DNA from: Alphaproteobacteria bacterium UBA830
GTDB lineage: Bacteria > Pseudomonadota > Alphaproteobacteria > MPNO01 > UBA830
Direction of reading: 5' to 3'
Assembly (NCBI GenBank): GCA_002295635.1
Contig: DBHK01000025.1
Span: 135,898-199,897, forward strand
Length of the DNA: 64,000 nucleotides
The position numbers and the translations under genes were made by a program. Under the pieces are notes generated by a model. The model did no database searches. It was not told where the DNA came from and was given only the letters and a program-made list of their open reading frames with translations. Shown here piece after piece: positions 4,221-22,157 of the stretch (positions are counted from its first letter, which is position 1; each line of letters opens with the position of its first letter).

Positions 4221-4232
4221 CCCGACTGTCTA

Positions 4233-5081: not shown

Positions 5082-5176
5082 CTTAATATGGTGTTCTATG
5101 GGGGGCCCGGACTTTAAACTAACTAAATGGTATGACGCCAGTAACCCTCGCCGTACTAAGTACGTCAGTGTAAGCT

Positions 5177-6016
5177 TTGCTCGTGAACCCAATCTTCAAT
5201 TCCGCCACTAATTTCTTTCGCCACCCTGTTGCAAGGCGGAGACCATTTCGTACTCTTGCACGTGTCGCGGTCTGGCAGTTCGTTAGCCGCGCCCAAGATA
5301 GAGTCAAGAAAGATTGGTTGGATGGTACATGCTTAATCGCCGGCAGAGGCATGACCGGATTAACCGGAAACATCTATTACGGCCTGCACGAATTTCACGA
5401 AATGGCGTCCGTTCTCCACATATTGCGAAGCGGCGATGCTTTCGCTGATGTTGGAGCAAATGCAGGGGCGTATACTGTACTAGCCAGCGGCGTCGCGGGT
5501 GCCAACACAGAAGCCATTGAACCGGGTCGGGCTGCGCTTTCGGCCCTTAAAACTAATATCACGATGAACGCCCTCGATAGACAGGTCACAGTTTACGAAT
5601 GTGCCGTCGCGGCGGTCCCCGGCGAGGCTTCTTTTACTGAGGGCGCCGGGACTATGAATCGCTTGACAGAGACGGGAACTCGGCGAGTCCCGGTAATGGC
5701 CCTCGACGGGCTAAGCCGAATTCCAACGATGATAAAGATCGATATCGAGGGCGGCGAAATGGCGGCTTTTCATGGCGCGCAGAAAATTCTTGGTTCGGAT
5801 GCGCTTCTTTGTATAGTTTCGGAAAGCCACGACACCGAAATAAGCGGATTTCTCGCTGATTTTGGCTTTGCCAAGTATCGCTACAATGCACTTACTCGAA
5901 CCTTTCACGAGGATGTGAGGGGCCGAGAAAGTGCCTGGTTCGTGCGCGATATGGTGGGCCTGTTAGAGCGGATTAACGACGCGAGGAAGACCGAAGTTTT
6001 CGGCGTTTGGGTTTAG
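5177..6016 (+). CDS. FkbM-family methyltransferase
   Basis: The pattern FADVGANAGAYTVLAS ... IKIDIEGGEMAAFHGA is typical of FkbM family methyltransferases. The start is TTG and is uncertain. Confidence 0.75.
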   Translation: MLVNPIFNSATNFFRHPVARRRPFRTLARVAVWQFVSRAQDRVKKDWLDGTCLIAGRGMTGLTGNIYYGLHEFHEMASVLHILRSGDAFADVGANAGAYTVLASGVAGANTEAIEPGRAALSALKTNITMNALDRQVTVYECAVAAVPGEASFTEGAGTMNRLTETGTRRVPVMALDGLSRIPTMIKIDIEGGEMAAFHGAQKILGSDALLCIVSESHDTEISGFLADFGFAKYRYNALTRTFHEDVRGRESAWFVRDMVGLLERINDARKTEVFGVWV

Positions 6017-6052
6017 AATTCAGTTTGGCCCCCGCCGGCAGGTTTTCCCTCG

Positions 6053-7252
6053 TTATTTGTATGGATCCGCCGCATCTCGAAGGCCGTCGCCGAAGAAGTT
6101 AAATGCCAGGATTACGATGATAACTGGTACCACCGGCAACATCAGCCAGGGATAAAGTGCTACGACGTTGATGTTCTGCGCTTCGGCTAGCAGAACCCCC
6201 CAACTGGTGATCGGCGGGCGTAGACCTAGGCCGAGAAACGAAAGGGCTGTCTCTCCTAGGATCATTGCTGGAATAGACAGGGTGGCTGAGGCGATTAAAT
6301 GACTCATAAAGCTCGGCATCATATGTCGCCAGATTATACGGCCGGGCTTGGCGCCCATCAGGCGGGCAGCCGACACAAAATCCTCCTCGCGCACCGCTAA
6401 AAGCTTTGATCTCACTGCTCGGGCAAGCCCGGTCCAGTCCAGAAGGCCGAGGATGATCGTAATGCCAAAATAAATTAGGATAGGGCTCCACGTCACTGGT
6501 AGCGCCGCAGATAGCGCCATCCACAATGGCAGTTCAGGGAAGGACCGTATAACCTCGATTGTCCGCTGGGTAACATTGTCCACCCAACCGCCGTAATAAC
6601 CCGCCAAACCACCGAAGAACATACCCAGCATAAAGCTGATAGCGATGCCGATGATGCCGACAGTGAGCGAGATCCGCGTGCCCATCACGATACGTGAAAA
6701 CATGTCACGTCCTAGCCGGTCGGTCCCTAGCAGAAAAAAGGTGCCATTTTCTGGCGGACAAATCAGGTGAAACCGCATCTCTATCAAGCCCCAAAATTGA
6801 TACTTATCCCCGAGACATAAAAAGCGGATTGGGTTTACCTGATTGGGGTCGTCTTCGTATTCGCGCTTAAGGTTTTCCATGTTGAGCGTATATTTCAGAC
6901 CGTAGGTGAAGGGTGCGCTTATACCCCCGTCATGGAAAAGGTGTAACGACTGGGGAGGGGCGAAGATGTGTTCAGTGTGCCGGGTGTTCATGTTGTAGGG
7001 CGCGATGAATTCACTGATCAGTACCGAGAAATATATCAGCGCAAGAATTGCGCCCGACCAGACCGCTAGCTTGTGTTTTCGAAAGCGGATCCACATCATT
7101 CGCCATTGCGACGCCATATAGATGCGTTCCTGTTCTGGGGTCAGCGCCTCGGCGACGTGGGGGTCGAACGGTTGATCGGATACCCAGTGTTCGAGACGAT
7201 CGCTTCCGGGCGCCCCATCCCCCGATGATCCAGATTGCGATGGGCTGCTCAT
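6053..7252 (-). CDS. ABC transporter permease, Opp/Dpp (DppC/YejE-like) family with N-terminal extension
   Basis: It is a multi-TM protein with the BPD-transport EAA-like region (ARLMGAKPGRIIWRHMMPS) and a C-terminal DGLRDAADPY. Its ATG overlaps the upstream stop (ATGA at 7249-7252). Confidence 0.85.
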   Translation of the reverse strand: MSSPSQSGSSGDGAPGSDRLEHWVSDQPFDPHVAEALTPEQERIYMASQWRMMWIRFRKHKLAVWSGAILALIYFSVLISEFIAPYNMNTRHTEHIFAPPQSLHLFHDGGISAPFTYGLKYTLNMENLKREYEDDPNQVNPIRFLCLGDKYQFWGLIEMRFHLICPPENGTFFLLGTDRLGRDMFSRIVMGTRISLTVGIIGIAISFMLGMFFGGLAGYYGGWVDNVTQRTIEVIRSFPELPLWMALSAALPVTWSPILIYFGITIILGLLDWTGLARAVRSKLLAVREEDFVSAARLMGAKPGRIIWRHMMPSFMSHLIASATLSIPAMILGETALSFLGLGLRPPITSWGVLLAEAQNINVVALYPWLMLPVVPVIIVILAFNFFGDGLRDAADPYK

Positions 7253-8247
7253 CGTTTTGCCCCCCCGCCCAGTCGGATTCGGGGGTCAAGCATGGCGAGC
7301 AGGATGTCTGAAATAAACACGCCGACGACCGTCAATAGAGATAGGAACATTAAAAAAGACCCGGCAAGGTACATATCTTGGCTTTGCAGCGCCCGCAGCA
7401 GCATCGGCCCGGTAGTCGGCAGGGACAGCACCACAGATACAATTACCGCTCCAGAAATGACCTGCGGTAGCAGATTACCAATGTCGGCGATGAACGGATT
7501 TAGAGACATGCGCAGAGGGTACTTTATCAGCAGCTTACGAGGCTTTAGCCCCTTGGCTCGGCCAGTAACCACGTATTGCCGTTGCAGCTCGTCAAGCAGG
7601 TTCGCGCGCAGCCGGCGGATCATTCCGGCCGTCCCCGAAGTACCGATAACGACCACCGGCACCCAAAGATGTTCGAGAATCGATAAGAACTTGGCCCAGG
7701 TCCACGGCTGTCCGATGAACTGATCGTCCATCAGCCCCCCAACCGAGGTGCCAAACCATCGGTTAGCGAGGTACAGAAGGACCAGCGCTAAAAGAAAATT
7801 AGGGGTCGCGAGACCGAGAAAGCCAAGAAAAGAAAGGCTATAATCTCCCCAAGAATACTGGTGCGTGGCCGAATAGACACCGATCGGGAACGAAACTGCC
7901 CATGTAAACAAGATGGTTGTGAACGACACTAGAAAGCTGAGCCACAGACGATCTCCAACAACCTCGGATACAGGCTGATTGTGCTCAAATGAGAAACCGA
8001 AATCGCCCTGCAGCATGCCAAACAGCCACATTAGGTATTGCTGCCACCAGGGTTTGTCGAGGCCATACTGCTCTCGCAAGAAGGCGATCTTAGCCTCATC
8101 GACCGCTTCGCCCTGACTTTGAAGTTCATTAATGTAGCTGCTCAGATAGTCGCCGGGCGGCAGTTGGATAATAACGAAGACTATCAGACTAATCGCGAGT
8201 AGCGTGGGGATCATAATTAGCAAACGATGGCCAAGATATTTGAGCAT
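7249..8247 (-). CDS. ABC transporter permease, Opp/Dpp (DppB/YejB-like) family
   Basis: The N-terminus is MLKYLGHRLLIMIPTLLAISLIVFVII. The protein contains TGRAKGL and ends in DPRIRL, both typical of DppB/OppB permeases. Confidence 0.85.
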   Translation of the reverse strand: MLKYLGHRLLIMIPTLLAISLIVFVIIQLPPGDYLSSYINELQSQGEAVDEAKIAFLREQYGLDKPWWQQYLMWLFGMLQGDFGFSFEHNQPVSEVVGDRLWLSFLVSFTTILFTWAVSFPIGVYSATHQYSWGDYSLSFLGFLGLATPNFLLALVLLYLANRWFGTSVGGLMDDQFIGQPWTWAKFLSILEHLWVPVVVIGTSGTAGMIRRLRANLLDELQRQYVVTGRAKGLKPRKLLIKYPLRMSLNPFIADIGNLLPQVISGAVIVSVVLSLPTTGPMLLRALQSQDMYLAGSFLMFLSLLTVVGVFISDILLAMLDPRIRLGGGAKR

Positions 8248-8259
8248 ACTATTCTGATC

Positions 8260-10176
8260 CTACCGCTGGGGCTCGCGCCGTTCGGCGTTATCAAACCAAA
8301 AGGTATCCGGCCGATAAATGCCAAAATGGGCACCTGGATTCCAGTTGTAGATGCCTTTGTCGGGTAAATTTCGGAGGTCTTTATTCACAACTACCGGCTG
8401 CGGCACCGAACCGATTAGACCAATCGAATAAACCTGATCGGCATTGATTTCCAGCATGCGCTGCCAAATACCCTGCCGCTCGCGGCGGCTGCGAGCATAG
8501 GCCCACGCCCTATTCAGCTTAAGCAGTTCCAGTGCGAAGGGGTCAGACGGTCGTTCGCCAGCGCGGGACTGAGTTTGGAAATACTGGCCCCATTTGGGCC
8601 ATTGAAGTTGCAGCTGGTCGGTAGGCGCGAATTCGGCCGGGATGGTGTCCGCATTTGGGATGCCGAATTCGTGGCCAGACCAGATTGACACCAGAGTTTC
8701 TCCTGCGAAGATCCGGTTACGGAACACCTCGCGTTGCGACGGACGCGTAAACAGTTTGATGCCCGCCGCCAGCCATGAATCATGAATGAGTTCCAGAACG
8801 TCTGTTTGTTCTGTATCTTCGCCCGCGGTTTCGACGATAATTTCCATCGGACGACCATCAGGCAACAGCCGGACGCCGCGTGAATCTCGCTTTAATAGGC
8901 CGAGTTCGTCCAGTAGCGAGTTAGCACTCACCAAGTCGAACTGAGCCCACGCATCGCGGTAGGCTTTTTTGTGAAGAGGGCTCGAGGGCAGCACGGTATT
9001 CTGCCCCTCGATCGCTAGACCGTAATATATAACTTGGTTAATTTCATGGCGGTTAATTGCGAGTGATAAAGCGCGCCGGAACTTCACGTCCTGCATTAGG
9101 TTACGCCAAACGTCGTCTTTCACATTCAAATTGGGGAATAGCGCTAGATGCGAGCCCTTTGCTGTCTGCCACAGACGAACTTTGAAATTTTCGCGCTTCT
9201 CGGCTTCCTTAAGGAACGTGTAGTTATTGAACGCTATACCGCGTGCTTGAAAATCTGATTCCCCCGCACCCGTTTTAAGCGGAATTACGCCGGCCGCGGC
9301 GATGGACATGGCAATCCGGTCAGTATACGGCAACTGGCGACCGTTTTGATCAACGCGATGATAAAAAGGATTGCGCTCAAAAATAAAGCGCTGCGCCGGC
9401 GGTTTTGTAAGTAGGAGCCAAGGCTGGAGTGTCGGTAGGTCCGGATTATCGTTTTTGTACTGGTTATCCCGCCGGTTATGAAGGGCTGCCCAGTTCCGAC
9501 GCCCCGATTTCTTCACCTTAGTGCGCAGTGTATTTGCTTCGGCGTAATCTGCGTGAAACTGCTTAAGATAATGTGACGGCCGATAGATATAGAGTGGCGT
9601 AGCAGATGCCAGCGCCGGCAAAAAATGAGGGTTTGGGAGACTCCATGAAAAACGCACAGTGTGCCTATCAATGACTTCAAACTTTGCGGCCTCGCCCGAA
9701 ACTACCATCTGTTTTGGTGCCCCGAGTGGCGATAGCTTTTTGTGGTTGGCGATATCCTCCCACCAATAACGGAAATCTTCAGATGTAAAGAGTGTTCCGT
9801 CTGACCAGCGATGGCCCTTACGAAGGCGTAGTGTAAATATTCGGCCCTGTTTGACGTCGACTCCGGCGAGGATATCCGGCTGCAGCGCAAACTGCGTGTC
9901 GTAGGTCATCAAACGCGCGTAACCGTATACAACGATGATCCGCGTATCCTTCGAACGACCAAAAACGACGCGCATGGTGCCGCCGTGTCGACCCGGATTT
10001 TCTAGCTGGACGATGCGCGGCTCCTGCGGCAGGCGCGCGGTGATGGGCGGTAGTTTGCCAATCGCAATATCGTTTTTAAACCAAGGTGTTTCTAAAGGTT
10101 TTGCTGTTTGCGCGACGGCTGCACCAAAAACAAAAGTGCCGGCGATCAAGACGGTGGATCGTATTATACTCTTCAT
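8260..10176 (-). CDS. ABC transporter substrate-binding protein, family 5 (peptide/oligosaccharide/opine type)
   Basis: It has a signal peptide ([25 protein letters not shown]). At 638 aa its size and composition fit YejA/OppA-like binding proteins. Its ATG overlaps the stop of the ATPase gene (10173-10176). Confidence 0.8.
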   Translation of the reverse strand: MKSIIRSTVLIAGTFVFGAAVAQTAKPLETPWFKNDIAIGKLPPITARLPQEPRIVQLENPGRHGGTMRVVFGRSKDTRIIVVYGYARLMTYDTQFALQPDILAGVDVKQGRIFTLRLRKGHRWSDGTLFTSEDFRYWWEDIANHKKLSPLGAPKQMVVSGEAAKFEVIDRHTVRFSWSLPNPHFLPALASATPLYIYRPSHYLKQFHADYAEANTLRTKVKKSGRRNWAALHNRRDNQYKNDNPDLPTLQPWLLLTKPPAQRFIFERNPFYHRVDQNGRQLPYTDRIAMSIAAAGVIPLKTGAGESDFQARGIAFNNYTFLKEAEKRENFKVRLWQTAKGSHLALFPNLNVKDDVWRNLMQDVKFRRALSLAINRHEINQVIYYGLAIEGQNTVLPSSPLHKKAYRDAWAQFDLVSANSLLDELGLLKRDSRGVRLLPDGRPMEIIVETAGEDTEQTDVLELIHDSWLAAGIKLFTRPSQREVFRNRIFAGETLVSIWSGHEFGIPNADTIPAEFAPTDQLQLQWPKWGQYFQTQSRAGERPSDPFALELLKLNRAWAYARSRRERQGIWQRMLEINADQVYSIGLIGSVPQPVVVNKDLRNLPDKGIYNWNPGAHFGIYRPDTFWFDNAERREPQR

Positions 10177-12053
10177 GCAAGTAATTCCCCCACGCTGGCC
10201 GAGGGGGCCGCGCGTACGAAATGTTCGTTGCCCAGATCAACAAGGCCGAGATCATGGCCGCTGCCGATCGTGAACGGCTCTGGCCATTCAGAGGGAATAG
10301 ATGCCTTTCCTTCCATCAGCGCCGTTAGGTCGAGCCGGGACCCTGGGTCGGGCTTTGGAACCGCCGACAACAGGGCCTTGGTATACGGATGCACCGGCGC
10401 CCGGAATAGCGCGTCGCGAGGCGCTGTTTCCACCAGACGCCCGGCGCACATCACGGCGATCCGGTCGGCGATATAATCAACAACCGCCAGATTGTGGGAA
10501 ATGAAAAGATAGGTAAGCCCCAGATCCTGCTGCAGGTCTTTGAGCAGGTTCAGAATTTGCGCCTGTACCGATACATCTAGAGCCGAGACCGGCTCATCGC
10601 ATAGCAGCAGCTCGGGTTTCAGGGCTAGCGCCCGAGCGATGCCGATTCGCTGTCTCTGGCCGCCCGAAAAGCTATGCGGATAACGGTTAAGATAGCGTGG
10701 ATCAAGGCCAACGAGCGCAATCAACTCCTGCACCATTTCCGCGCGATAGGCCTCGTCGCCGATATTGTGGATAAGCAACGGCTCAGAAATGATGTCAAAT
10801 ACCGTCATTCGAGGATTTAGAGACGAGAATGGGTCTTGGAACATAAACTGGACCCTCCGCCGGTAAGGAAGAAGTTCCTTTTCGCCCAACGCGGTCAGAT
10901 CGATGTCGGTCCCACGGTCGTTAAATATCACCTGACCGGAATCGGGGGTTAGCGCGCGCATAATCATCTTGGAGAGCGTTGTCTTGCCACAACCCGACTC
11001 GCCGACAAGGCCCAGACATTCACCCTGTCGAACAAAAAAGCTGACATCTTCAACTGCCAGCACTTTCTGAACTTCGCCGCCACTAAAGATGCCGCCTTTT
11101 CGAAGCGGATAGGTTTTAGTTAGCCCGGAAACTCGCAGGAGCGGTTTTTCCAGGGCAACCGCCTCTTCCTCACGTGCCGCCAGTAGATGGCCGGTTGTAT
11201 GACGGATCTCGCGCAGTGGGACAAGGCGTTCACCTTCTTCCATGTGAAAACGCGGAACGGCCCGCAAAAGAGCTTTTAGATAATCATGTCCTGGGCTGAG
11301 GAAGATATCATCCAGCGAACCGCGTTCCAGCACCCCACCATGATACATTACCACGATCTCATCGGCGACGTTAGCAACAACACCGAGATCATGGGTGATC
11401 ATCAGCACCGCCATCTGTAATTCCCGTTGCAGATCGTTAATCAACTTCAGGATTTGCGCTTGAATGGTTACGTCCAGCGCGGTGGTCGGCTCGTCCGCGA
11501 TCAGTAGGGATGGGCGACAGACAAGCGCCATGGCAATCATTGCGCGCTGGCGGAGCCCGCCCGACAGCTCAAAGGGATAGGTTTTCAACGCGCGTGCGGG
11601 GTCGGGGAAACCGACGAGACGCAACATCTCGGCTGTTAATTCTATCCCGAGTTGCTTCGATAACTCGCGGTGTAGAAAAAGTGCTTCCGAAATTTGGTCA
11701 CCAACTGTGTGTAGCGGCGACAGCGACGTCATCGGCTCCTGAAAAATTATGGATATCTGGCCGCCGCGGATTTCCCGCATCTTCGGCCCGTTGGCATCCA
11801 GCGCCAGCAGATTGGTGGTTTTCCTGTTTTTGGGATCGGTATATATAATCTCGCCGCCGGTTACCTTTGCTGCCTTCGGCAGAATACCCATAATTGTCTG
11901 GGAGACGACGGATTTGCCGGATCCGGATTCGCCGACTAGTGCAACGGTTTTCCCTTCGGGAACACGGAAACTAGCCCCCCTGACGGCAGGGACAATGCCC
12001 TCGGCCACGTGGAATTCGACCTTGAGGTCGTTGACGTTCAATAAATCCTTCAT
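10173..12053 (-). CDS. Fused double-NBD ABC transporter ATP-binding protein (YejF/DppDF-like)
   Basis: There are two complete NBDs: Walker A GESGSGKS and GESGCGKT, signatures LSGGLRQR and FSGGQRQR, and Walker B LLIADEPT and LLLCDEPV. Confidence 0.9.
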
Positions 12054-12556
12054 TGGGAATCGCTACTAGGTGTAAATAACTCTTTCGTTTCACCCAGAAG
12101 CTCAAGATTCCCCAAGGTGGTCGGCGAAAGATCCAGCCCTCGGTCACTAGCAGCTTTCGACGCGCATTTAACAATATCGGCGAACCCACTGAGAGTCGAT
12201 TCAATCCGAATTTTAACGCCGCCCCCCTTAAGAACAAGTTGCAGCCAACCACGCCTCCCGTCACGACGGGTCGAAAAGTGCCGGAGGCGCATCTCCTCTA
12301 TATCCTGCCAACGCATGGAACGTGAAAAAGGCCCGGAAACCATTATTCCCGTAATACTAAGCTCTATGACACTAACATGTCGAATGATCACGTTCCCGGT
12401 ATAGACGATGAACAAAGACACCAAAAATATCATTGTCCAGTATACAGGGCCTATTGTTTGAAGGAAAAGAACTGGCCCCACCGTAACCGCTAGACCAAAA
12501 GCCGCACGGATATAGTCGGAAGCAATTGTATGTATTGTATGGCGGTATTCGGTCAC
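12050..12556 (-). CDS. Small membrane protein, two TM helices plus a C-terminal PH-like soluble domain (hypothetical)
   Basis: Two hydrophobic helices are present (AAFGLAVTVGPVLFLQTI, YWTMIFLVSLFIVYTG). The basic beta-rich tail resembles bacterial PH-like domains. I chose the GTG at 12556, which overlaps the upstream stop (GTGA). Its own stop overlaps the ATPase ATG (ATGA at 12050-12053). Confidence 0.5.
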   Translation of the reverse strand: MTEYRHTIHTIASDYIRAAFGLAVTVGPVLFLQTIGPVYWTMIFLVSLFIVYTGNVIIRHVSVIELSITGIMVSGPFSRSMRWQDIEEMRLRHFSTRRDGRRGWLQLVLKGGGVKIRIESTLSGFADIVKCASKAASDRGLDLSPTTLGNLELLGETKELFTPSSDSQ

Positions 12557-13320
12557 GCGGGTGCCGGAAAAAGGTCTCGCGCCGACATCCAACGGGCTGC
12601 CGGATGGGATGCCGTCCGATCGATGAATTCGCGGATGAAATCCCAACACCCTTGGTCATGCGTTAGATGGTGAGTGAGCAATCCCGTAGCCTCTCCAGCA
12701 TCCGCCGCCCCTTCGCGCTTCGCGACAAGATGCGCGATCGCCGCGGCTAGATTGGACGTGTTCCCTGCAAAACCCCCGGTACCGTGCCAATCGATAATGT
12801 CTATATGAGTGTTGACAGCCGTCAGCCCCGGCACTGGTTCAACATTTGGGCGGGCTGCGAATGTCGAGATACCGTGGTACCCCAGACCCGGCAGCAGGGA
12901 CATTACCGAGGGGTGGATTCGGTTCCATGGCGGGACTATGGCCTCGACCCAGCCGCCCTCGCCAAAAATATCGAACAGTCGCCCCCGACCTGTGGCCAGT
13001 TCGCCAGCTATGTCCCACAGATCCCGATCGGCACCGAGCTCAGATTTCCGGTCACCAGAAGACCGGAAATTCCGGTGGGCATATCCATGCTGCAGGATAT
13101 CTACGTGCATATCTGACAATATATCTGATAGCGCAGGCACCGCGGTCGCGGGGACGACGGCGATAGCGACCGGCACGCCGGCCTCACGCTGGAGAGCGAG
13201 CAGGTGTTCGAGGGCGGACGTCGGCTCGATCGCATCGTCATCTCGCCACCAGAACACCGCGTTCCGTCCGGCATCAGCCCAGTGATCGAGCTCGGCCGTT
13301 AGGTCGCCCCAAGAACTCAT
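12553..13320 (-). CDS. Polysaccharide deacetylase (NodB/CE4-like) family protein
   Basis: It has a WWRDDD motif near the N-terminus and HGYAH and THHL histidine motifs. The ATG at 13320 overlaps the upstream stop (ATGA at 13317-13320). Confidence 0.65.
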   Translation of the reverse strand: MSSWGDLTAELDHWADAGRNAVFWWRDDDAIEPTSALEHLLALQREAGVPVAIAVVPATAVPALSDILSDMHVDILQHGYAHRNFRSSGDRKSELGADRDLWDIAGELATGRGRLFDIFGEGGWVEAIVPPWNRIHPSVMSLLPGLGYHGISTFAARPNVEPVPGLTAVNTHIDIIDWHGTGGFAGNTSNLAAAIAHLVAKREGAADAGEATGLLTHHLTHDQGCWDFIREFIDRTASHPAARWMSARDLFPAPA

Positions 13321-14477
13321 GTGGCCGTCCGACAGTGCTGCTCGAGCCATGCTGAGAGGAGGTGGGCGCTTGTATCAGCACCGTTGGCTTTAAGCCCCGA
13401 GATATCCGGTGGCGGGGCGGCCAGTGCTTCATTTACGGCGTGGGCAAGGGCTTGCGGGCTCAACTGATCTTCCTTAATACTGCGGATACCGTTGCGGTCT
13501 TCCAGAAGACGCGCGCGCAGCGTCTGTTCCGTTTCCAGACCGCCGGCATAGGGCACGATCACGCCACGGGTCTGCGCCGCTAACATTTCCATAACTGTGT
13601 TGTAACCACCCTGGCTGATTGAGAGCGTGCAATTCGCCATCAGCGTAGTAAAATCCGCCCGGGCCCGTTCGACGGCGATACCCTCTGGCGCGTCTTCTTT
13701 CAGCTGATCAAATATGGCCTGCGGCAGGGCATGGCCGACGAGAATACGCCATAGGCGATCGGAAAGTTCCGTTTCTTTCCTAGCTAACATGGCGGCTCTA
13801 AAGAGTTCCTCAGAGACAGCCCCCCCGCCGGCGGAAACAATCACCTCGTCGGCACCCGGCCCACCTGGTATTTTTTTCGGCGTGTCCACAACATATCCAC
13901 TATAGGCGACGATATCCGAAATCCGGTCAGCGGGGCCAAAAGTATCGCCGAAGGGTATTAGTTTTGGATCACCGTGAATAAGTATGCGATCATAATAGGT
14001 TTCGATCCGCGACAACATCTCTTCCACACGCTGTGGCTTGGGTGGTTTGACCAAGATGTCGCGGACCGAAGATACAATAAGTGGTCGGTTTGGCCGTGTC
14101 TTTGCGGCATCTAACAGCGCGGTCAGTTCGTTGCGCAGTTGGCGCCGCCCAAATGGAAACAGCTCCGTGATGACAGCATCCGGGGAACAAGCTTCATAAG
14201 CCTGCAACAGGAGCCCGCGGCGCCGTTCATAGAAAGCTTCATCGATTTCCAGACCATTTTCGTCGACCAGGGTTTTAAAATGCTTATCTGCCGCGCGCAC
14301 GGGTGGTAGCTGGATCAGCTTTGCACCTGTTACGTCGAGGCCCGGCACATCGTGACCGCCGGACACGATGGTCACGTCCATACCTGCGCGGCTGAATGCC
14401 CGCGAAAGGGTCGCGGTTCGTTTCAGATGTCCTATCCCGAGCAGATGCTGCACCCAGAAAAATATTCTAGGTGCCAT
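13317..14477 (-). CDS. Glycosyltransferase, GT-B fold (GT28 C-terminal / COG4671-like), paralog 1
   Basis: The N-terminus reads RIFFWVQHLLGIGHLKR, a G-x-GH-x-x-R loop. The C-terminal half has SQGGYNT. It is similar to the 17503-18723 product. A GGAGGG Shine-Dalgarno sequence precedes the ATG at 14477. Confidence 0.75.
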   Translation of the reverse strand: MAPRIFFWVQHLLGIGHLKRTATLSRAFSRAGMDVTIVSGGHDVPGLDVTGAKLIQLPPVRAADKHFKTLVDENGLEIDEAFYERRRGLLLQAYEACSPDAVITELFPFGRRQLRNELTALLDAAKTRPNRPLIVSSVRDILVKPPKPQRVEEMLSRIETYYDRILIHGDPKLIPFGDTFGPADRISDIVAYSGYVVDTPKKIPGGPGADEVIVSAGGGAVSEELFRAAMLARKETELSDRLWRILVGHALPQAIFDQLKEDAPEGIAVERARADFTTLMANCTLSISQGGYNTVMEMLAAQTRGVIVPYAGGLETEQTLRARLLEDRNGIRSIKEDQLSPQALAHAVNEALAAPPPDISGLKANGADTSAHLLSAWLEQHCRTAT

Positions 14478-15075
14478 TATTCCCTCCATTCTCTGTCAGG
14501 GGAACGTTCAGCGCTTCGATCGCGAAACCACCATCCGAATCAGCTTCGAATATGTGAACACTGGCCCAATTCATTTTTTCCGGCGGTTTGCCAACCATAC
14601 TCCATCCGGTCGCTAATGACAGCGCCGCCCGTATGATTCCCTGGTGGCAGACAGCGCCGGTCGGTTGTCCTGTAGCCGCTATCTCGCGTGCCCAAGCGGC
14701 CACGCGGTCGCGTACGTCTCGCGGGCTTTCGCCCCCGTGCGGCCGCAGATCAAGCCCCTTTGCGGCTCGGATAGAAATCTCATCGCCGTATATTTCTTCC
14801 AGCTCCGAACGGGTGTGGCCTTCCCATGCGCCCCAGTCCATTTCAATAATCGCGGGGTCAAGCTGAGTGATTTCAAGCGAGAGTATTTCGGCCGTCTGCT
14901 GCGCTCGGCTAAGGGGGCTAGAAACCCACCGAAACACCCGATAGGCGTCGGGAACGCGCCATTTCGCGACTTCCTCGCACCCTTCCGCCGACAGTGGGCG
15001 GTCAGTGCGGCCCTGTAGCCGATGCTCCCCGTTCCAGTCGGTTGGTCCGTGGCGGATCAAAGCAATCTCCGTCAT
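14467..15075 (-). CDS. Histidine phosphatase (phosphoglycerate-mutase-like) family protein
   Basis: The catalytic RHG motif is at the N-terminus (IALIRHGPTDWN). A second histidine region is present (AVCHQGIIRA). The ATG overlaps the upstream stop (ATGA at 15072-15075). Confidence 0.85.
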   Translation of the reverse strand: MTEIALIRHGPTDWNGEHRLQGRTDRPLSAEGCEEVAKWRVPDAYRVFRWVSSPLSRAQQTAEILSLEITQLDPAIIEMDWGAWEGHTRSELEEIYGDEISIRAAKGLDLRPHGGESPRDVRDRVAAWAREIAATGQPTGAVCHQGIIRAALSLATGWSMVGKPPEKMNWASVHIFEADSDGGFAIEALNVPLTENGGNNGT

Positions 15076-16223
15076 ACGGCCCCCAACTCCACAGCGCCAC
15101 GCAAAATACGGTCGAGCGTGACCGCCGCGGATGTTATATCGTTTTCTGAGGCCGTGCGAGCAAGTGCCTTCTTTGAGAATACGGACCGCCTATTCGGCGC
15201 AACGAGCAATTCCGCAGTGGCGGTGGCAAATGCACCAACATCCCCGACAAGACACAAAAGCCCAGTTTCGCCGTGTCTGACAAAATCTGGAACCCCGCCG
15301 GTTTCACCTGCGACCACTGGTAGTCCCGTGGCTTGGGCTTCCAACATTGCCATCCCGTATGCCTCGTTCACAGCAGGCCAGACCATTAAATCCGCCGCTG
15401 CGTATAACGCAGGCAGTTCCTCAGGCATGACCCCACCCGCGAACCGGATGCGATTACTGGCCAAATCTGCAAACGCGGCTTCCACCGGTAAACGAGCGGG
15501 GCCGTCGCCTACGATCAGAAGCGCCCATTCACTATTCTGTAGACGACCTAGTGCCTCGGCCAGCACCCGGTAACTGGCGAGCTTGTCTCCGTCCCGCATC
15601 ATTCCAACCGCCAACAGTATCGGGGTGTTACCGTCCACCTGAAAGCGCCCGACGATATCTGCTCGATGTTTTATCCGGTTTTTTGCGGCAAGCGCGAAAG
15701 GCGTCGTGTCGGTGAACGGCGGAAGAGTGTGATATCTGCCGGGATCTTCTAGCAACGGTTGCACGCAGGCGGCGTCTCGCTGCGACAGGCCGATAATTCC
15801 TAGCCCGTGCTTGATGGCCGATTCCGCCGCTCTGTACCCAATGTCCCAGGGCCCACCCGCCTGTTTAGGCGCGTGGGAAACCTCGGCGAGAAAATAGGGT
15901 ATTTCGAGGGCCTCGCTGACAGCCGGCCCGATCCAGTCCGGCGCTTTGTGGTATACGTGATATGTGAACCAGGCATCAGGCCGCCGCTCGGAATTTCCCC
16001 TCTGCCAGTTCTCGATCAGAACCCTTGCTTCCTCTTGTGCCCCCTGGGCAAGCGCCCTCTGGGTTGCTGGATCCCCGATACCGTCGCGGCTAACGAACTC
16101 GCTGGCAATGTCCACCTTATGCCCGCACCCCAGAGCGGCAATCAGGTTGCGAGCCATTTGGCGATCGCCCGACGGCACCGGCGACGATACAGGTTTCATT
16201 GGGGCGTAGAAAGCGATCCTCAT
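15072..16223 (-). CDS. Glycosyltransferase family 4 (group 1)
   Basis: The C-terminal GT-B region NEAYGMAMLEAQATGLPVVAGETGGVPDFV carries the E-x7-E type motif of GT4 enzymes. Confidence 0.85.
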   Translation of the reverse strand: MRIAFYAPMKPVSSPVPSGDRQMARNLIAALGCGHKVDIASEFVSRDGIGDPATQRALAQGAQEEARVLIENWQRGNSERRPDAWFTYHVYHKAPDWIGPAVSEALEIPYFLAEVSHAPKQAGGPWDIGYRAAESAIKHGLGIIGLSQRDAACVQPLLEDPGRYHTLPPFTDTTPFALAAKNRIKHRADIVGRFQVDGNTPILLAVGMMRDGDKLASYRVLAEALGRLQNSEWALLIVGDGPARLPVEAAFADLASNRIRFAGGVMPEELPALYAAADLMVWPAVNEAYGMAMLEAQATGLPVVAGETGGVPDFVRHGETGLLCLVGDVGAFATATAELLVAPNRRSVFSKKALARTASENDITSAAVTLDRILRGAVELGAV

Positions 16224-16234
16224 CGTACGAAGCT

Positions 16235-17488
16235 TCAGGCCGCATCGCGGTCGGATAAAGTGACCGCTGCACCTAGCTTGGCTGCAAGCCGGTCGATCCC
16301 CGCCCTGAATGAAAATGCGCTTCGTACGCGCGCCTCTCCAGCGCGGCCTAGAAACAGTCTGCGTTCGGAATTTACAGCGAGCGTCGCGATTGCGTTTCTG
16401 AGTGCATCAGGGTTATCCGCCGGGACCAGCACCCCAGTTTCGCCGTCGACGATCAACTCCGGAATGGCTGAAACATCGGTAGCAACACAGACTAAGCCCT
16501 GGCTCTGAGCTTCCATCAGTACATTTGGAAGACCGTCGCGGTCACCATCGTTACCGACCCGGCTTGCCAAAACGAACAAGTCGGCCTTTCGGTATAGATT
16601 GCGCACTTCACCTTGCGGCAATGCGCCGAACCAGACCACTCTGTCCGCGATACCAAGCCGTTCGGCCCGCACTTTTAAGCGGTCACACAATTCGCCGCCG
16701 CCGACATGCCACAGCCGCCAATTGATATGTGAAGGCAATCCCGCCACCGCATCGAGGAGAATGTCGTGACCCTTTTTCTCCACCGCTCGGCCCACACACA
16801 AGAAGTACAATGGGTCGTCAGGATCAGACCCATCGCGCAAGGCCCTTCTGTTCGGCGCGGGCGGAAATCGATCAGCGTCCAGCCCATGATAGACCAACTC
16901 CACTTTTCCTTCCCCGTTGTCCAGCGCCGCCAGATGGTCTCGAGCATAGCCAGAACAGGTAACCAGCCAGCTAGCGGCGGCCAATTTTTCTCGCTTCTCC
17001 CATTCCGGCGTGGTCCAGATATCCTTTGCGTGGGCGGATACAGTCCAGGGCCTTCCAGTCAGCGCAGCTGCGTAGCGTGCGACGGATGCGGGCGTGTGTA
17101 GAAAATGAGCATGGATATGTTCTATATCTGGCGCCAGTTCATGTGCCAGCACGAGGGCCTGCCCGAAGCGACGGATTCGGTTAGTTGTCCTGTCGCGGTA
17201 TAAATCTCGTAGCCATGCACGCCGAACTTTCCGGTAGGCTGACAATTTCCGCATTTTGCGCCAAGCAACCCACACCCGTCGTGGTTCTTGGTAAAGATAT
17301 TCCGGAAGATATCGTACGGGGGCCTCAATTTCTTCGTGTACCGGATGTTTTTGGCTGTCCGTCGGGTGTCGTAGAGATACGATCTCGACATCGAGCCCTC
17401 GTTCTTCAAGGCCCCGAATCTCTTGGGCTATAAAGGTTTCCGACAAACGTGGGTACCCTTTGACTACTATGGCGATGCGGCCAGACAT
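16235..17488 (-). CDS. Glycosyltransferase family 4 (group 1, WcaL-like)
   Basis: The motifs are IAIVVKGYPRLSETFI at the N-terminus and DGLPNVLMEAQSQGLVCVATDVSAIPELI later in the protein. Confidence 0.85.
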   Translation of the reverse strand: MSGRIAIVVKGYPRLSETFIAQEIRGLEERGLDVEIVSLRHPTDSQKHPVHEEIEAPVRYLPEYLYQEPRRVWVAWRKMRKLSAYRKVRRAWLRDLYRDRTTNRIRRFGQALVLAHELAPDIEHIHAHFLHTPASVARYAAALTGRPWTVSAHAKDIWTTPEWEKREKLAAASWLVTCSGYARDHLAALDNGEGKVELVYHGLDADRFPPAPNRRALRDGSDPDDPLYFLCVGRAVEKKGHDILLDAVAGLPSHINWRLWHVGGGELCDRLKVRAERLGIADRVVWFGALPQGEVRNLYRKADLFVLASRVGNDGDRDGLPNVLMEAQSQGLVCVATDVSAIPELIVDGETGVLVPADNPDALRNAIATLAVNSERRLFLGRAGEARVRSAFSFRAGIDRLAAKLGAAVTLSDRDAA

Positions 17489-17502
17489 GGCGATACGGTC
17501 GT

Positions 17503-18723
17503 TCAGACTCGGCCTGCAATGGCAGCGATTGGTTTTGCGCGGCGCCCAGTAAGGCGGCGTGCCAGCCGGTTAACGTTTGGCAGTCCGTCGAGTAGCCCCG
17601 GTACGACGATATCGGATGGACGGTTCTGTTGTGGCAGGTGGCGCAGAGCGGTCGCCATGTCCCTAGCATTGCGGATACCGTCATCCTCCAGCATACGGAC
17701 AAGGCCCAATTCTTGGGCACGATCCGCCCTGATGAACTGCTCCATACGAGGTACCGTTCGCGGGATGACCAGAGCCGGTTTGTCGAAGGAAAGGATCTCG
17801 CAAAATGTGTTATAACCCCCCATTGCCACGATGCCCGCCGCGGCTTGGATCAATGGTTCGATATTGGCCTCGAACGTTATCGCTTCAACATTTTTAAGTT
17901 CTGCGACTCGACGGCTGAACTCGAGTTGTTTTTCTTGTTGCATGAACGGTCCGAACACCATCAATGCCGGATAGGGTGGCGTGGCCTCTGACTCGTAAGC
18001 GCGGAGCACCCAATCGACCATTGCTTCCCCGTCTCCACCGCCTCCCGGCGTCACTAACAGGTGAGGCTGGTCGAAAGGAACCGCATGTTCGGCGTTGGGC
18101 GCGCCGCGCGCGGCGTCACGTTCCAGATATCCGGTGTAAACCATTTTGCGCCGGACCTGTTGAGGTAACGTAATCTCCGCAAGGGGGTCACAGATTTGCG
18201 GCAAACCGTAGACCCAAATCTGATCGTAAAGGTGTTCAAGCGCCGGAATGACATTCTTACGCTCCCATTCAGGCGCTAACAACGATGGCTCATCCATTAC
18301 GTCGCGCAACCCCAGAACCAGAGGTGTACCGCGTTCACACAGCATTTCTAATGTTTCCGCAACCTCCCCCCGCAGGCCCAGAGGCTCCTTGTCGACAATG
18401 AAGATATTTGGATCGAATACTTCAGCTGTGTGCTTGATGATTGATGCGCGTAGCGCAACGGTCTGTTCAATATCGAGATCTAGGCTGTGAGACGTGTAAT
18501 CGCCGTTACGCAGCTTTATTACACCGGGCACCCTTACGAAATCGACCCTTCGCTTGAAATCGAAATTCCCTATGATTGGCGATCCAGAAAGAATAATTAC
18601 GGACATGTTTTGGTTCTGGTCCACGAGAGCATGAGCGATAGCACGACAACGCCGCAGATGCCCGAGTCCGAAGCTATCATGGCTGTAAATGAGTGCTCGC
18701 TGCGGCTGTTTATTTGTCATCAT
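17503..18723 (-). CDS. Glycosyltransferase, GT-B fold (GT28 C-terminal / COG4671-like), paralog 2
   Basis: ALIYSHDSFGLGHLRRC and a C-terminal MGGYNT motif parallel the 13317-14477 product. I chose the ATG at 18723. The track start at 18777 is a TTG with no obvious RBS, so the start remains uncertain. Confidence 0.75.
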   Translation of the reverse strand: MMTNKQPQRALIYSHDSFGLGHLRRCRAIAHALVDQNQNMSVIILSGSPIIGNFDFKRRVDFVRVPGVIKLRNGDYTSHSLDLDIEQTVALRASIIKHTAEVFDPNIFIVDKEPLGLRGEVAETLEMLCERGTPLVLGLRDVMDEPSLLAPEWERKNVIPALEHLYDQIWVYGLPQICDPLAEITLPQQVRRKMVYTGYLERDAARGAPNAEHAVPFDQPHLLVTPGGGGDGEAMVDWVLRAYESEATPPYPALMVFGPFMQQEKQLEFSRRVAELKNVEAITFEANIEPLIQAAAGIVAMGGYNTFCEILSFDKPALVIPRTVPRMEQFIRADRAQELGLVRMLEDDGIRNARDMATALRHLPQQNRPSDIVVPGLLDGLPNVNRLARRLTGRRAKPIAAIAGRV

Positions 18724-18831
18724 GCATGAACCAATGGGTTTTGCGCAGAATATCGCATGCCTTGGACATCTCCCCAAATATTATATGTCTGGAGGGATCT
18801 TTTTCTGATATTAACACATTTTACTATGAAT

Positions 18832-18870
18832 TAGATAAAAGCTGATATTTAGCACGATATAGATAAAAGC
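18832..18870. repeat. Two copies of the 11-bp direct repeat TAGATAAAAGC, 28 bp apart, in the divergent AT-rich intergenic region
   Basis: I read exact copies at 18832-18842 and 18860-18870. They lie between the GT operon start (18723/18777) and the ABC-exporter start (18957). Confidence 0.7.
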
Positions 18871-18956
18871 CGGCATGGCTATTCAATAGGCGGCACGTTG
18901 CGGTAATATGGGGTACTGTCGCAAACATACCGACAGCTTATACGTTCGTCGCATCG

Positions 18957-21620
18957 GTGGGGATCCAAGTGGAAACAAGCATTTACCGTTACGTCATGAA
19001 GTATTCGCTGCGTCAGCAGGTCATTCTGACGCTTATGGCGATTGCGTCGTTCCCCTTCTTATATGCCTTTTACGAATTACCAAAGATGATCGTTAACGGT
19101 GCAATTCAAGCCAAAAGTGTCAGCTTTCCAACTACGATGGTGGGTGTTGAGTTAGACCAAATTAACTATCTCTGGGTCCTGTGTGCCGGTTTTCTCATTC
19201 TTGTGATTGTTAATCAGGCGTTTAAATACGCGATCAATCTCTACGCAGGGATAACGGGCGAACGTATGTTGCGCCGGCTACGTTTCCAGCTATACGGTAG
19301 AATTCTGAGGTTTCCGCTACCACAGTTTCGAAAAACATCATCGTCCGAAATGGTGACTATGATCACCGCTGAGGTCGAGCCGTTGGGCGGGTTTGTCGGC
19401 GATGCTTTTAAGTTACCGGTATTCCAAGGCGGCTACCTACTAGTCATTCTCGCGTTTTTGTTTGTTCAGAACTGGTTTATGGCGCTTGCCGCGATCGCGC
19501 TATACCCACTCCAGGGCTACCTGATCCCGAAGCTGCAAAGCCGTGTAAGAGTGTTTAGCAAGCAAAGGGTTCGTTTGGTGCGTCAGCTGTCCGACCGTAT
19601 CGGCGAAACAGCAAATGGTGTTGTTGAAATTCATTCAAATAACAGCGCTCGGCGCGAGTTGGCTGAATTTTCTGGCCGCCTAGGGGCCTTATACGATGTC
19701 CGCCTCCAGATTTATATTTGGAAGTTTATAATCAAATTCCTGAATAATTCGATAAATCAACTCGGCCCATTTTGCTTCTACGCGATTGGTGGCTGGCTAG
19801 CAATAAAGGGCGAACTCGAGATCGGCACACTTATGGCAGCTATCGCCGCCCATAAGGACCTCGCAGCACCCTGGAAAGAACTTCTGAATTTTTATCAGCG
19901 TCAAGCAGATGCAAAAATTAAGTACGAGCAGGTGATGGAACAGTTCCAGCCGCCAGGAATGATGGAAGAAAGTCGCCAGGTAGGTGAACCAGAGTCGGTG
20001 GAGCCGCTGCGTGGCGACGTTGTAGCCTCTGGCCTGTCCTTGGGGGATGACACGGGCGCCACGCTGGTCGATAGTGCCTCTTTCACCTTTGATACCTCCG
20101 AACATGTCGCAATGGTTGGTGGTGGCGGTTCCGGGAAGGAAGAAACGGCCCAGCTTTTAGCAGCTCTTCTGGAGCCAACTGGAGGCGGCCTACAGATCGG
20201 CCCAGAAAAGCTTGGGGATATGCCGGAGGCAGTCACAGGCAGAAGGCTCTCTTACGTTGGCGCATCGGCTTATCTATTCTCGAATACTATTCGCGATAAC
20301 CTGCTCTACGGCGTCCAACATCTACCTCTAATAGAACCCAATTACACCGAAGACGAACGCCGAATTCATGAAAGTCGGTTGTCTGAGGCTACTGCTTCGG
20401 GCAATTCCACCGACGACCTCAATGCCAACTGGATAGACTATAACGGTGCTGGCGTACCGGATGATGACGCTCTTCTCAAACGCATCTTCGATGTTCTGGA
20501 AATGGTCAAGTTGGATCAAGATATCTATACCCTAGGACTTCGCAGCGTCGTTGATCCGACGGCCCAGTCAGGCTTAGCAGATAAATTCTTGGAGGCCCGA
20601 AACGAATTTCGTAGTCGCGTTACTGACCCGGATATTGCCGCGCTGGTCGAGGGGTTTGACTCGGAGCGTTACAATCAAAATGCTACACTTGGAGAGAACC
20701 TGCTGTTCGGCACCCCGGTAGGGCCCTCTTTTGATATGGATCGCCTTGCTGAAAACGAATATGTAATTTCTGTCCTCGACGGCCAAGGCCTGACGAGTCG
20801 AATGCTCGAGGCCGGCCAGCAGATCGCCTCTACTATGGCTGAAGTATTCGCGGGGCTGTCCGCTGGGCATCCGTTCTTCGAACAATTCAGTTTCATATCA
20901 TCCGAGGATCTTCCGGAACTTCAGTCGATCCTAACGCGGATCAGCCGTGATGGGATAGATGCGATCCGACCAGAAGAACGAACTATGCTTCTATCTTTGC
21001 CATTCAAGATTTCCCCTTCGCGCCATCGTTTAGGGGTGATCGACGATGCCCTCCAAGAGCAAATATTGAAAGCCCGTCACGCCTTTTCAGAAAATCTCCC
21101 GGACGAACTGGAGGGGGGGATAGAATTTTTTGATAAGGACACGTACAACTCGGCCGGGACACTACAAGATAATATCTTGTTCGGGAAACTTGCTTACGGT
21201 CAAGCGGGCGGCGCCGATCGGGTCGGTGAAATTGTATCCGCGATTATCAGCGACCTTGGCTTGCGTAACATCGTGATGGAAGTTGGCTTAGATTTCCATG
21301 CCGGTATAGGCGGAGGACGGCTTTCCAGCGCCCAACGACAGAAGATCGGTATTGCTCGGGCAGTTCTTAAACGGCCTGATGTACTTATCTTAAATGAAGC
21401 CACTGGAAGCCTAGATGGGGCAACACAGACGGCGCTACTCTCCAACCTGCGTGACGAAATGAGTGGTCGTGGAGTGGTATGGGCACTAAACCGTGCAACT
21501 ATGGCAGAGAGTTTTGACAAGATCTTAGTAATGAAGTCCGGACGTGTCACTGAACAAGGTAGCTGGGATGAACTCAACAGGGAGGGTTCGGATTTTTACG
21601 AACTTCTGCAGTCTGAATGA
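18957..21620 (+). CDS. Atypical ABC exporter-like protein: type-I exporter TMD fused to an expanded, motif-degenerate NBD
   Basis: The N-terminal ~330 aa has the TM-helix pattern of ABC_membrane domains. The C-terminal part carries GGGGSGKEE, LSSAQRQKIGIARA and VLILNEAT. The start is uncertain: GTG at 18957 or 18969, or ATG at 18996. Confidence 0.8.
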   Translation: MGIQVETSIYRYVMKYSLRQQVILTLMAIASFPFLYAFYELPKMIVNGAIQAKSVSFPTTMVGVELDQINYLWVLCAGFLILVIVNQAFKYAINLYAGITGERMLRRLRFQLYGRILRFPLPQFRKTSSSEMVTMITAEVEPLGGFVGDAFKLPVFQGGYLLVILAFLFVQNWFMALAAIALYPLQGYLIPKLQSRVRVFSKQRVRLVRQLSDRIGETANGVVEIHSNNSARRELAEFSGRLGALYDVRLQIYIWKFIIKFLNNSINQLGPFCFYAIGGWLAIKGELEIGTLMAAIAAHKDLAAPWKELLNFYQRQADAKIKYEQVMEQFQPPGMMEESRQVGEPESVEPLRGDVVASGLSLGDDTGATLVDSASFTFDTSEHVAMVGGGGSGKEETAQLLAALLEPTGGGLQIGPEKLGDMPEAVTGRRLSYVGASAYLFSNTIRDNLLYGVQHLPLIEPNYTEDERRIHESRLSEATASGNSTDDLNANWIDYNGAGVPDDDALLKRIFDVLEMVKLDQDIYTLGLRSVVDPTAQSGLADKFLEARNEFRSRVTDPDIAALVEGFDSERYNQNATLGENLLFGTPVGPSFDMDRLAENEYVISVLDGQGLTSRMLEAGQQIASTMAEVFAGLSAGHPFFEQFSFISSEDLPELQSILTRISRDGIDAIRPEERTMLLSLPFKISPSRHRLGVIDDALQEQILKARHAFSENLPDELEGGIEFFDKDTYNSAGTLQDNILFGKLAYGQAGGADRVGEIVSAIISDLGLRNIVMEVGLDFHAGIGGGRLSSAQRQKIGIARAVLKRPDVLILNEATGSLDGATQTALLSNLRDEMSGRGVVWALNRATMAESFDKILVMKSGRVTEQGSWDELNREGSDFYELLQSE

Positions 21621-21687
21621 CACGAGTTGATATGAAAAAACCGCAGGACCAATTCATGATTTTCGCGACATCGGCAAGGAGAAACCA

Positions 21688-22134: not shown

Positions 22135-22157
22135 AAATCCAGGAACCCGACAAGTAT

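Follow-up and report, generated by a model that had tools for sequence, protein, structure and literature searches.

Why should an importer of the peptide-transporter type be encoded in one operon with glycosyltransferases? The question is raised by a stretch of 64,000 nucleotides (hereafter the window) from Alphaproteobacteria bacterium UBA830, an uncultured marine bacterium (GCA_002295635.1, contig DBHK01000025.1, positions 135,898 to 199,897). Eleven consecutive minus-strand open reading frames (ORFs) of the window, numbered g01 to g11 in the direction of transcription (Table 1), lead there from glycosyltransferase (GT) genes to those of an ATP-binding cassette (ABC) importer of the Opp/Dpp (PepT) type with a family-5 substrate-binding protein (SBP). 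With high probability, the eleven genes form one conserved functional unit orthologous to the rhizobial opt-red module, which is also described as the cluster of a putative "phazolicin-protecting polysaccharide" (PPP). The region of ~3354-22649 is a common alphaproteobacterial version of this envelope-glycan module. Its best overall explanation, which we hold with moderate confidence, is that the eleven genes are one operon within such a module and that the product of the module is exported and then re-imported.

The ORF listing and the inspection of in-frame start codons reproduced all junctions given in an earlier sequence-only reading, which had described a tightly coupled run of eleven genes between 18777 and 6053 with gaps of 14 nt at most. 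Adjacent genes share 4-nt ATGA or GTGA overlaps at 15072-15075, 13317-13320, 12553-12556, 12050-12053, 10173-10176 and 7249-7252; one overlap is longer, 11 nt (14467-14477), and GGAGG stands before its ATG at 14477. The intergenic gaps amount to 14 nt (17489-17502), 11 nt (16224-16234) and 12 nt (8248-8259). The tightness of the operon exceeds chance. The run itself is real and only its upstream end is better placed elsewhere: the longest frame of g01 opens at TTG 18777, and the alignments of its orthologues begin at ATG 18723 or 18720. Because the orthologues align from that residue, ATG 18723 is the more likely start, and the divergent intergenic region in front of the operon therefore grows to ~233 nt. 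This region is presumed to hold the promoters of both divergent units; no consensus sigma-70 match inside it was reported by the promoter scan. An internal promoter or terminator at 12050 had been named as a sign of two separate units. Consensus scans of the region show none there and give totals at or below the shuffle expectation; they are weak evidence either way.

The functional link between the enzymes and the importer, proposed from the coupling, is borne out by the comparison of genomes. In a sample of 300 genomes spread evenly over the Alphaproteobacteria (~254 genera) the SBP orthologue is present in 89 and the GT in 95, and 86 genomes hold both (Fisher p = 2e-60). Importer orthologues lying elsewhere with no GT linkage, the other sign against a link, are not what is found: just 3 genomes have the SBP only, some or all of which could be explained by assembly gaps, and 9 have the GT only. 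Both genes lie within 12 kb on the same contig in 66 of the 86 genomes, mostly 2.4-4.7 kb apart; the others have them on separate contigs of fragmented assemblies (17) or far apart on one contig (3). Among relatives of the same order, from several families, 12 of 15 keep all eleven genes and the facing exporter-like gene in identical order, and in the remaining three, all of one genus (g2), the whole transporter is located elsewhere. The alignment of g05, used as a query against species-representative genomes, gave >586 related loci; the full arrangement recurs in most of the best 80, which were inspected (Rhodospirillales-like metagenome-assembled genomes, Sneathiella, Kiloniella, Oceanibacterium and Reyranella). 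The most conserved junction is that of g07 with the ATPase gene g08, with a median of -4 nt over 58 related loci and a distance of <=30 nt in 55 of them. The linkage of enzymes and transporter persists also through the rearrangement of gene order in Rhizobiales. The gene set is thus found in roughly 30% of the sampled alphaproteobacterial genera, from marine Rhodospirillales-like bacteria to rhizobia and relatives of Agrobacterium, and the arrangement, which had been taken for unusual, is common in this class and in its rhizobial form already in the literature.

These data decide between the simplest explanations. The idea that the two halves adjoin by chance, or that unrelated operons were recently fused in this genome, has nothing to its credit beyond the generic nature of the parts; it is already refuted by the gene order and the overlapping junction conserved across many families, and its probability is practically nil. 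We regard it as very unlikely that the importer is a general oligopeptide or oligosaccharide transporter sharing regulation, and no common substrate, with the glycan genes. The generic character of the family would agree with such a role, as would the lineages that keep both parts unlinked; it is contradicted by the almost perfectly correlated presence and absence of the two parts in the sampled genomes and by a linkage kept through independent rearrangements. The SBP orthologue is moreover single-copy, and it is distinct from other PepT paralogues, since the range of E from 1e-100 to 1e-186 contains no SBP match. The preferred reading, a single functional unit, agrees with expression data as well: a metatranscriptome of the sample containing this sequence has exact contigs of 150-170 nt on the SBP, PH-like, two GT and exporter genes, so both halves of the operon are expressed in situ.

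Two variants of the arrangement were seen among the related loci. In five of them (L070, L072, L078, L091 and L099) the exporter-like and cyclic-nucleotide-binding (cNMP) genes are co-directional between the g05-type GT gene and the PH-like and ATPase genes, and the deacetylase gene is absent; the rearrangement still keeps the three sub-modules together. In L059, L065, L073 and L106 (Kiloniella), L094 and L105 the cluster has no SBP gene and a permease gene directly follows the ATPase gene. The four Kiloniella loci carry an extra RedA-like paralogue where the deacetylase and PH-like genes would be, and the genomes of L059 and L073 retain a 53-54% SBP orthologue on another contig.

When plasmid records were searched by protein, matches came from Sinorhizobium pSymB and from Rhizobium plasmids. 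In S. meliloti the gene order is adenylate/guanylate cyclase, polysaccharide lyase, ABC ATPase, SBP, two permeases, GT, GT4, GT, methyltransferase, exporter-like gene, cNMP-binding protein and FkbM methyltransferase, with a further GT4, a polysaccharide deacetylase and an MBL hydrolase ~15 kb from the rest of the cluster. In tblastn against S. meliloti the identities are 51% for the SBP, 59% for the ATPase, 64-65% for the permeases, 42-54% for the GTs, 41% for the second GT4 (GT4b), 38% for the deacetylase, 36% for the exporter-like protein and 58% for the cNMP protein. In particular, g01, g02 and g05 are mutual best matches of SMb21264, SMb21265 and SMb21266 (46, 54 and 42% over >=96% of length) and likewise of their counterparts on pRL11 of R. 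leguminosarum, and the two RedA paralogues, with a mutual identity of 24-29%, are resolved from each other. For g01 the identity is 46% in S. meliloti (L108) and 47% in pRL11; the ranges over both species are 46-47% for RedA, 52-54% for RedB and 36-39% for the exporter. The coordinates and sizes of the S. meliloti region agree with SMb21252-SMb21271, the putative PPP cluster in which SMb21264 is redA and SMb21265 is redB (Travin et al. 2023, PMC10128002); the COG4671 label of SMb21264 is given in Data Set S1 of the same work. In that study the PPP product is regarded as a polysaccharide of the cell surface, and there is no discussion of the importer. The paper on the Clr regulon (PMC5498481) concerns another pSymB cluster, nodP2-smb21248, and not the PPP cluster.

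On pRL11 of R. leguminosarum 3841 the same genes follow one another in a single direction, as pRL110046-pRL110056. The importer keeps its internal order, ATPase-SBP-permease-permease, and its linkage to the red genes, with 49-65% identity to SMb21260-63 and pRL110051-54. An opt operon with redA and redB is reportedly present also in R. etli. Our locus is the counterpart of this operon, because pRL110053-54 were named optAD by Wheatley et al. The linkage of GTs and importer is therefore real and already described for rhizobia; the form in the window, the non-rhizobial one, is more compact and seems to be the commoner of the two.

The opt operon of R. etli and R. leguminosarum shares with the window an ATPase-first importer with a fused double ATPase and a family-5 SBP of ~630 aa, linked to two RedA-type GTs and one GT4 of RedB type, with an exporter-like protein of ~900 aa and a cNMP protein attached. 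It differs in the position of the importer, which is ahead of the GTs there and last in the window; in its co-directional exporter gene; in that the rhizobial cluster is flanked by an adenylate/guanylate cyclase and a nucleotide-sugar dehydrogenase; and in that GT4b, the phosphatase and the deacetylase belong to the same operon in the window. The S. meliloti PPP cluster contains orthologues of g01, g02, g03, g05, g06, the importer, the exporter-like protein, the cNMP protein, the MBL hydrolase and the FkbM methyltransferase, but extends over ~23 kb in several transcription units and includes a polysaccharide lyase, a dehydrogenase, a DUF3095 protein and a cyclase. Homologues of the phosphatase g04, which is found in nearly all non-rhizobial loci, and of the PH-like protein g07 are absent from the rhizobial loci compared.

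All gene labels of the sequence-only reading hold, nine of them by Pfam and two, "deacetylase" and "membrane protein", through AlphaFold models. The products of g08-g11 carry the full domain set of an Opp/Dpp importer: an SBP_bac_5 protein, two BPD_transp_1 permeases (OppB-N and OppC_N) and an ATPase with an oligo_HPY tail. In g08 the Walker A, signature and Walker B motifs are canonical in both nucleotide-binding domains (NBDs), and the identity to rhizobial orthologues is 59%; that of g09 to rhizobial OptA is 49-51%. The importer is far better conserved than the enzymes. In the same genome pair permease B shows 97% identity and GT4b 71%; the ranges for permease versus GT4b are 93-97% versus 64-71% in the closest relatives and 78-83% versus 45-55% at the order level. 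YejABEF (YejBEF-YepA), an importer of microcin C, antimicrobial peptides and muropeptides, belongs to the same importer class and has a fused double-NBD ATPase and a large family-5 SBP as well. It differs in gene order and was rejected as an identity for our importer, the scores against the NCBIfam equivalogs being under the cut-offs (YejF 578 bits versus 834, YejB 121 versus 445). S. meliloti moreover has a separate yej locus, yejABEF being listed apart from SMb21260-63 (PMC10128002).

The nature of the product is suggested by the enzymes. The deacetylase g06 has no Pfam match of its own, and a PDB sequence search gave low-complexity matches to designed armadillo repeats, which were disregarded. 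Its AlphaFold2 (AF2) model, built from an alignment of 32 orthologues, has a pLDDT of 97. Foldseek matches it to 3rxz (E 1e-8) and to CE4 enzymes with E 1e-8 to 1e-5 and TM-scores of 0.5-0.76, among them chitin, peptidoglycan and xylan deacetylases; DUF2334 is matched by 12 of the 32 orthologues. Residues D27, D28, H78, H82, H217 and H218 are invariant among these orthologues and provide the Asp-Asp and His-x3-His motifs. With the fold, the Asp-Asp motif and the His-His pair of metal ligands all present, g06 is a predicted CE4/NodB-type de-N-acetylase. The closest solved structures of GT4b (g03) are MshA and BshA, the match being confined to the C-terminal domain. An MshA/BshA-like GT4 followed by a phosphatase and a de-N-acetylase is reminiscent of the mycothiol and bacillithiol pathways (MshA/MshA2/MshB and BshA/BshB), and by this analogy the order would make a GlcN-X primer. 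In contrast to these pathways, the matches cover the nucleotide-sugar domain only and the deacetylase is of CE4 fold and not of the LmbE type. A pathway of this type was rejected, the GT4 scores for the best-matching NCBIfam equivalogs being far under the cut-offs (BshA 86 bits versus 274, MshA 77 versus 462), and the locus has no cysteine ligase.

Three methyltransferases (class I, FkbM and Methyltransf_17) and the MBL hydrolase recur beside the operon in distant relatives and in S. meliloti. It is this recurrence which suggests a methylated product. Together with the four soluble GT-B enzymes, the phosphatase and the CE4 enzyme, the methyltransferases suggest a short methylated glycan with a de-N-acetylated amino sugar. 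According to Pfam, none of the genes between 3354 and 34676 encodes a priming phosphoglycosyltransferase, Wzx/Wzy, KpsMT or an outer-membrane export protein; a surface polysaccharide pathway of Wzx/Wzy or ABC/Kps type was rejected for this region, its defining genes not being found. Because the module has no outer-membrane export genes, the product is probably periplasmic or envelope-bound, that is, within reach of the SBP.

From these assignments the following scheme is proposed. Four cytoplasmic GT-B enzymes (two of RedA type, RedB and the second GT4) would build a short glycan or glycoside, probably amino-sugar-containing and methylated, with the histidine phosphatase and the CE4 de-N-acetylase assisting in its assembly. 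The protein of ABC-exporter fold would carry the product across the inner membrane, its activity being probably tied to a cyclic nucleotide, and the product would probably stay in the periplasm or envelope. Finally, the OptDABC importer, headed by the PH-like membrane protein, would return the glycan or its fragments to the cell. Such re-import would serve recycling, homeostasis or sensing and not the supply of a precursor.

Published genetics of the rhizobial module, which affects antibiotic tolerance and symbiosis, separates the importer from biosynthesis; these phenotypes are known from S. meliloti and R. leguminosarum only. In transposon sequencing (Tn-seq) of S. meliloti nine PPP genes are among the most strongly phazolicin-sensitising ones: three GTs, GT4b, the deacetylase, the dehydrogenase, the lyase, the exporter and the FkbM gene (PMC10128002). 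The importer genes SM_RS20900-20915 (SMb21260-63) are absent from the complete "Affected_genes" sheet of the same work. Mutation of optAD in R. leguminosarum gives an advantage in the rhizosphere and on the root, and the exporter permease and an adjacent UDP-GlcNAc 6-dehydrogenase are required in nodules. If the importer supplied an external or periplasmic acceptor or precursor (a peptide, muropeptide or sugar) for the GTs, it would act upstream of synthesis, and its location in one operon with the enzymes would be explained. PepT-family transporters often carry peptides. R. etli opt mutants are reportedly poor in growth on oligopeptides and altered in susceptibility to bacitracin and ampicillin, which counts for this possibility too. 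The R. etli opt insertions may be polar on the GT genes, because opt lies upstream of redA and redB, as in pRL11. Import of a precursor or acceptor is disfavoured by the phazolicin screen because the four importer genes are missing from its list of affected genes, their mutants showing no strong phenotype of the kind seen for GT and exporter mutants, while the nine biosynthesis and export genes are strongly affected; the advantage of optAD mutants in R. leguminosarum, as opposed to the defect of exporter mutants, points in the same direction. We consider a precursor-supplying importer improbable, though with some chance left to it.

The best fit is given by the other role which had been foreseen from the sequence, the recycling of a periplasmic glyco-product. 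The S. meliloti Tn-seq data, the R. leguminosarum optAD data and the carbohydrate-type branch of the SBP favour an importer that retrieves what the cluster itself has made and exported over one that supplies a precursor; as a specific role for the importer, retrieval is put forward tentatively, at somewhat under an even chance. The closest PDB entries of g09 are 5ipw (2e-80) and SPH1118 (2e-69), and its relatives by sequence include the oligosaccharide binders SPH1118 and AgpA. SPH1118 of Sphingomonas sp. A1 (PDB 7VER), the closest relative with a characterised ligand, is a 69-kDa cluster-C SBP annotated as peptide-binding; it binds oligogalacturonides and fails with peptide mixtures. It belongs to the same large (69-kDa) branch of family-5 SBPs as g09, the match extending over the full length. 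Its sugar-stacking Trp594 corresponds to W612 of g09, a residue shared by 70 of 73 orthologues (14 Trp are invariant), and two of the five checked pocket arginines are kept. The other three are replaced in g09 (Arg57 by Val, Arg438 and Arg496 by Asp), so the ligand of g09 is expected to differ from an oligogalacturonide; a pectin or uronate oligosaccharide was rejected as unsupported on the same ground. In the rhizobial clusters the importer has genes for a polysaccharide lyase and a nucleotide-sugar dehydrogenase beside it.

Several observations weigh against export and re-import of a glycan. Half of the residues by which SPH1118 contacts its ligand are not conserved in g09, so that its ligand may be of another class. 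R. etli opt mutants are said to be impaired in the use of oligopeptides as a nitrogen source, by which Opt would be an importer of peptides. A lone antibiotic screen without an importer phenotype is no proof of retrieval. The terms "glycan" and "amino sugar" for the putative product are taken from the enzyme families. Export itself is uncertain because the ATP-site motifs of the exporter-like protein are degenerate (Walker A GGGGSGKE, Walker B ILNEAT, signature LSSAQ); its direction and cargo, like the importer ligand, are inferred. Finally, none of the metatranscriptome contigs of 150-170 nt spans a gene junction, so that they are no direct evidence of co-transcription.

It is possible that the SBP and importer, together with the PH-like protein, chiefly sense the exported glycan or an environmental oligosaccharide and feed back on synthesis or export, with transport being secondary. 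SBPs of the SPH1118 type double as chemotaxis receptors, a cNMP-binding protein is always in the module, and in rhizobia a cyclase gene lies directly upstream of the importer. Chromosomal cyaA and the 3',5'-cyclic-nucleotide phosphodiesterase gene SMc03973 have effects of the same sign as the PPP genes in the phazolicin screen (PMC10128002, Data Set S1), which fits sensing and would agree with control of the module by a cyclic nucleotide. The tightly coupled PH-like protein g07, too, has no obvious role in transport. In its model, built from an alignment of 32 orthologues, an N-terminal transmembrane (TM) hairpin precedes a PH-like beta-sandwich and a C-terminal helix. Foldseek matches it to PH domains, among them the bacterial 3dcx/3hsa, with probabilities of 0.9-0.99 (0.98 for 3dcx/3hsa), but with weak E values of 0.02-0.3 (0.03 for 3dcx/3hsa); Pfam gave no match and a PDB sequence search nothing meaningful. 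Sensing as the chief function is nevertheless unlikely: no part of the importer is missing and both of its NBDs are canonical, its stronger purifying selection compared with the enzymes fits a working transporter, and no signalling domain is fused to any of its subunits.

Re-import of the exported product might be part of a loop, controlled by a cyclic nucleotide and widespread among these bacteria, in which a small methylated amino-sugar glycan is made, released to the periplasm and taken back. In this loop, which as a whole is speculative and rather doubtful, the glycan might be an envelope protectant, an osmoprotectant or a signal, its release might be accomplished by an exporter-fold protein without canonical ATP-site residues, and its retrieval by a dedicated PepT-type importer, which a PH-like partner might couple to the membrane or to the exporter. 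If this were true, it would be a system of periplasmic-glycan homeostasis distinct from the osmoregulated periplasmic glucan (OPG) and cyclic-glucan systems. The importer accompanies the enzymes almost obligatorily, and published screens separate its phenotypes from those of biosynthesis; by these two facts a "surface polysaccharide cluster" becomes a testable hypothesis of export and re-import. They also advise caution in annotating such importers as oligopeptide (Opp/Yej) transporters.

Table 1. Coordinates of the operon genes and neighbouring features in the window.
Feature	Position	Strand	Basis and remarks
Convergent trio: MBL-fold hydrolase, class I methyltransferase, FkbM methyltransferase	3354..6016	+	Pfam
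g11, OppC-type permease	6053..7252	-	PF00528 + OppC_N; 64% identity to rhizobial orthologue
g10, OppB-type permease	7249..8247	-	PF00528 + PF19300; 65% identity to rhizobial orthologue
g09, OptA-type periplasmic family-5 SBP, 638 aa, signal peptide	8260..10176	-	PF00496 (SBP_bac_5)
g08, OptD-type fused double-NBD ABC ATPase	10173..12053	-	ABC_tran x2 + oligo_HPY
g07, small membrane protein, 168 aa, predicted two-helix TM hairpin + PH-like beta-sandwich	12050..12556	-	AF2 model, pLDDT 88
g06, predicted CE4/NodB-fold (DUF2334-like) deacetylase, 255 aa, orthologue of SMb21253	12553..13320	-	AF2 model; 38% identity
g05, second RedA-type glycosyltransferase (COG4671), orthologue of SMb21266	13317..14477	-	PF04101 6e-11; 42% identity
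g04, branch-1 histidine phosphatase	14467..15075	-	PF00300 (His_Phos_1) 9e-40
g03 (GT4b), second GT4 glycosyltransferase, orthologue of SMb21252	15072..16223	-	Pfam Glycos_transf_1; 41% identity in L109
g02, RedB-type GT4 glycosyltransferase, orthologue of SMb21265	16235..17488	-	Glycos_transf_1 3.7e-35; 54% identity
g01, RedA-type GT-B glycosyltransferase (COG4671, GT28-like C-terminal domain), orthologue of SMb21264 redA	17503..18723	-	PF04101 (Glyco_tran_28_C)
Divergent intergenic region, operon / exporter-like gene	18724..18956	.	sole sizeable non-coding gap of the module
ABC-exporter-like protein, 887 aa, degenerate NBD, orthologue of SMb21269 and pRL110047	18957..21620	+	PF00664 + partial PF00005
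Stand-alone cNMP-binding protein, 148 aa	21688..22134	+	PF00027 1e-20; 58-59% identity to rhizobial counterparts
SAM methyltransferase (Methyltransf_17), right-hand edge of the module	22158..22649	+	PF12692 2e-58

The module is limited by the convergent trio on one side and by the Methyltransf_17 gene on the other, the genes beyond 22649 being unrelated (Cu-ATPase and others). Homologues of the MBL and MT24 genes adjoin the permease end in many related loci. In S. meliloti the MBL gene is found beside SMb21252-53, and the FkbM gene, SMb21271, inside the cluster. The exporter-like protein has 39% full-length identity to the pRL11 gene and 36% to that of S. meliloti and is kept beside the operon in most loci; the cNMP-binding gene is likewise syntenic in most of them. 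The exporter-like protein contains ~300 extra residues within the NBD and is always paired with the stand-alone cNMP-binding protein. In pSymB of S. meliloti ml21 (L108, 16106-18810) the exporter-like gene appears as two tblastn pieces in different frames, which meet at ~16507-16513. The gene is absent from the PLSDB gene table for this locus, and SMb21269 of strain 1021 is annotated with 2091 bp only. The S. meliloti gene may thus be frameshifted or split, or its start may have been mis-called.

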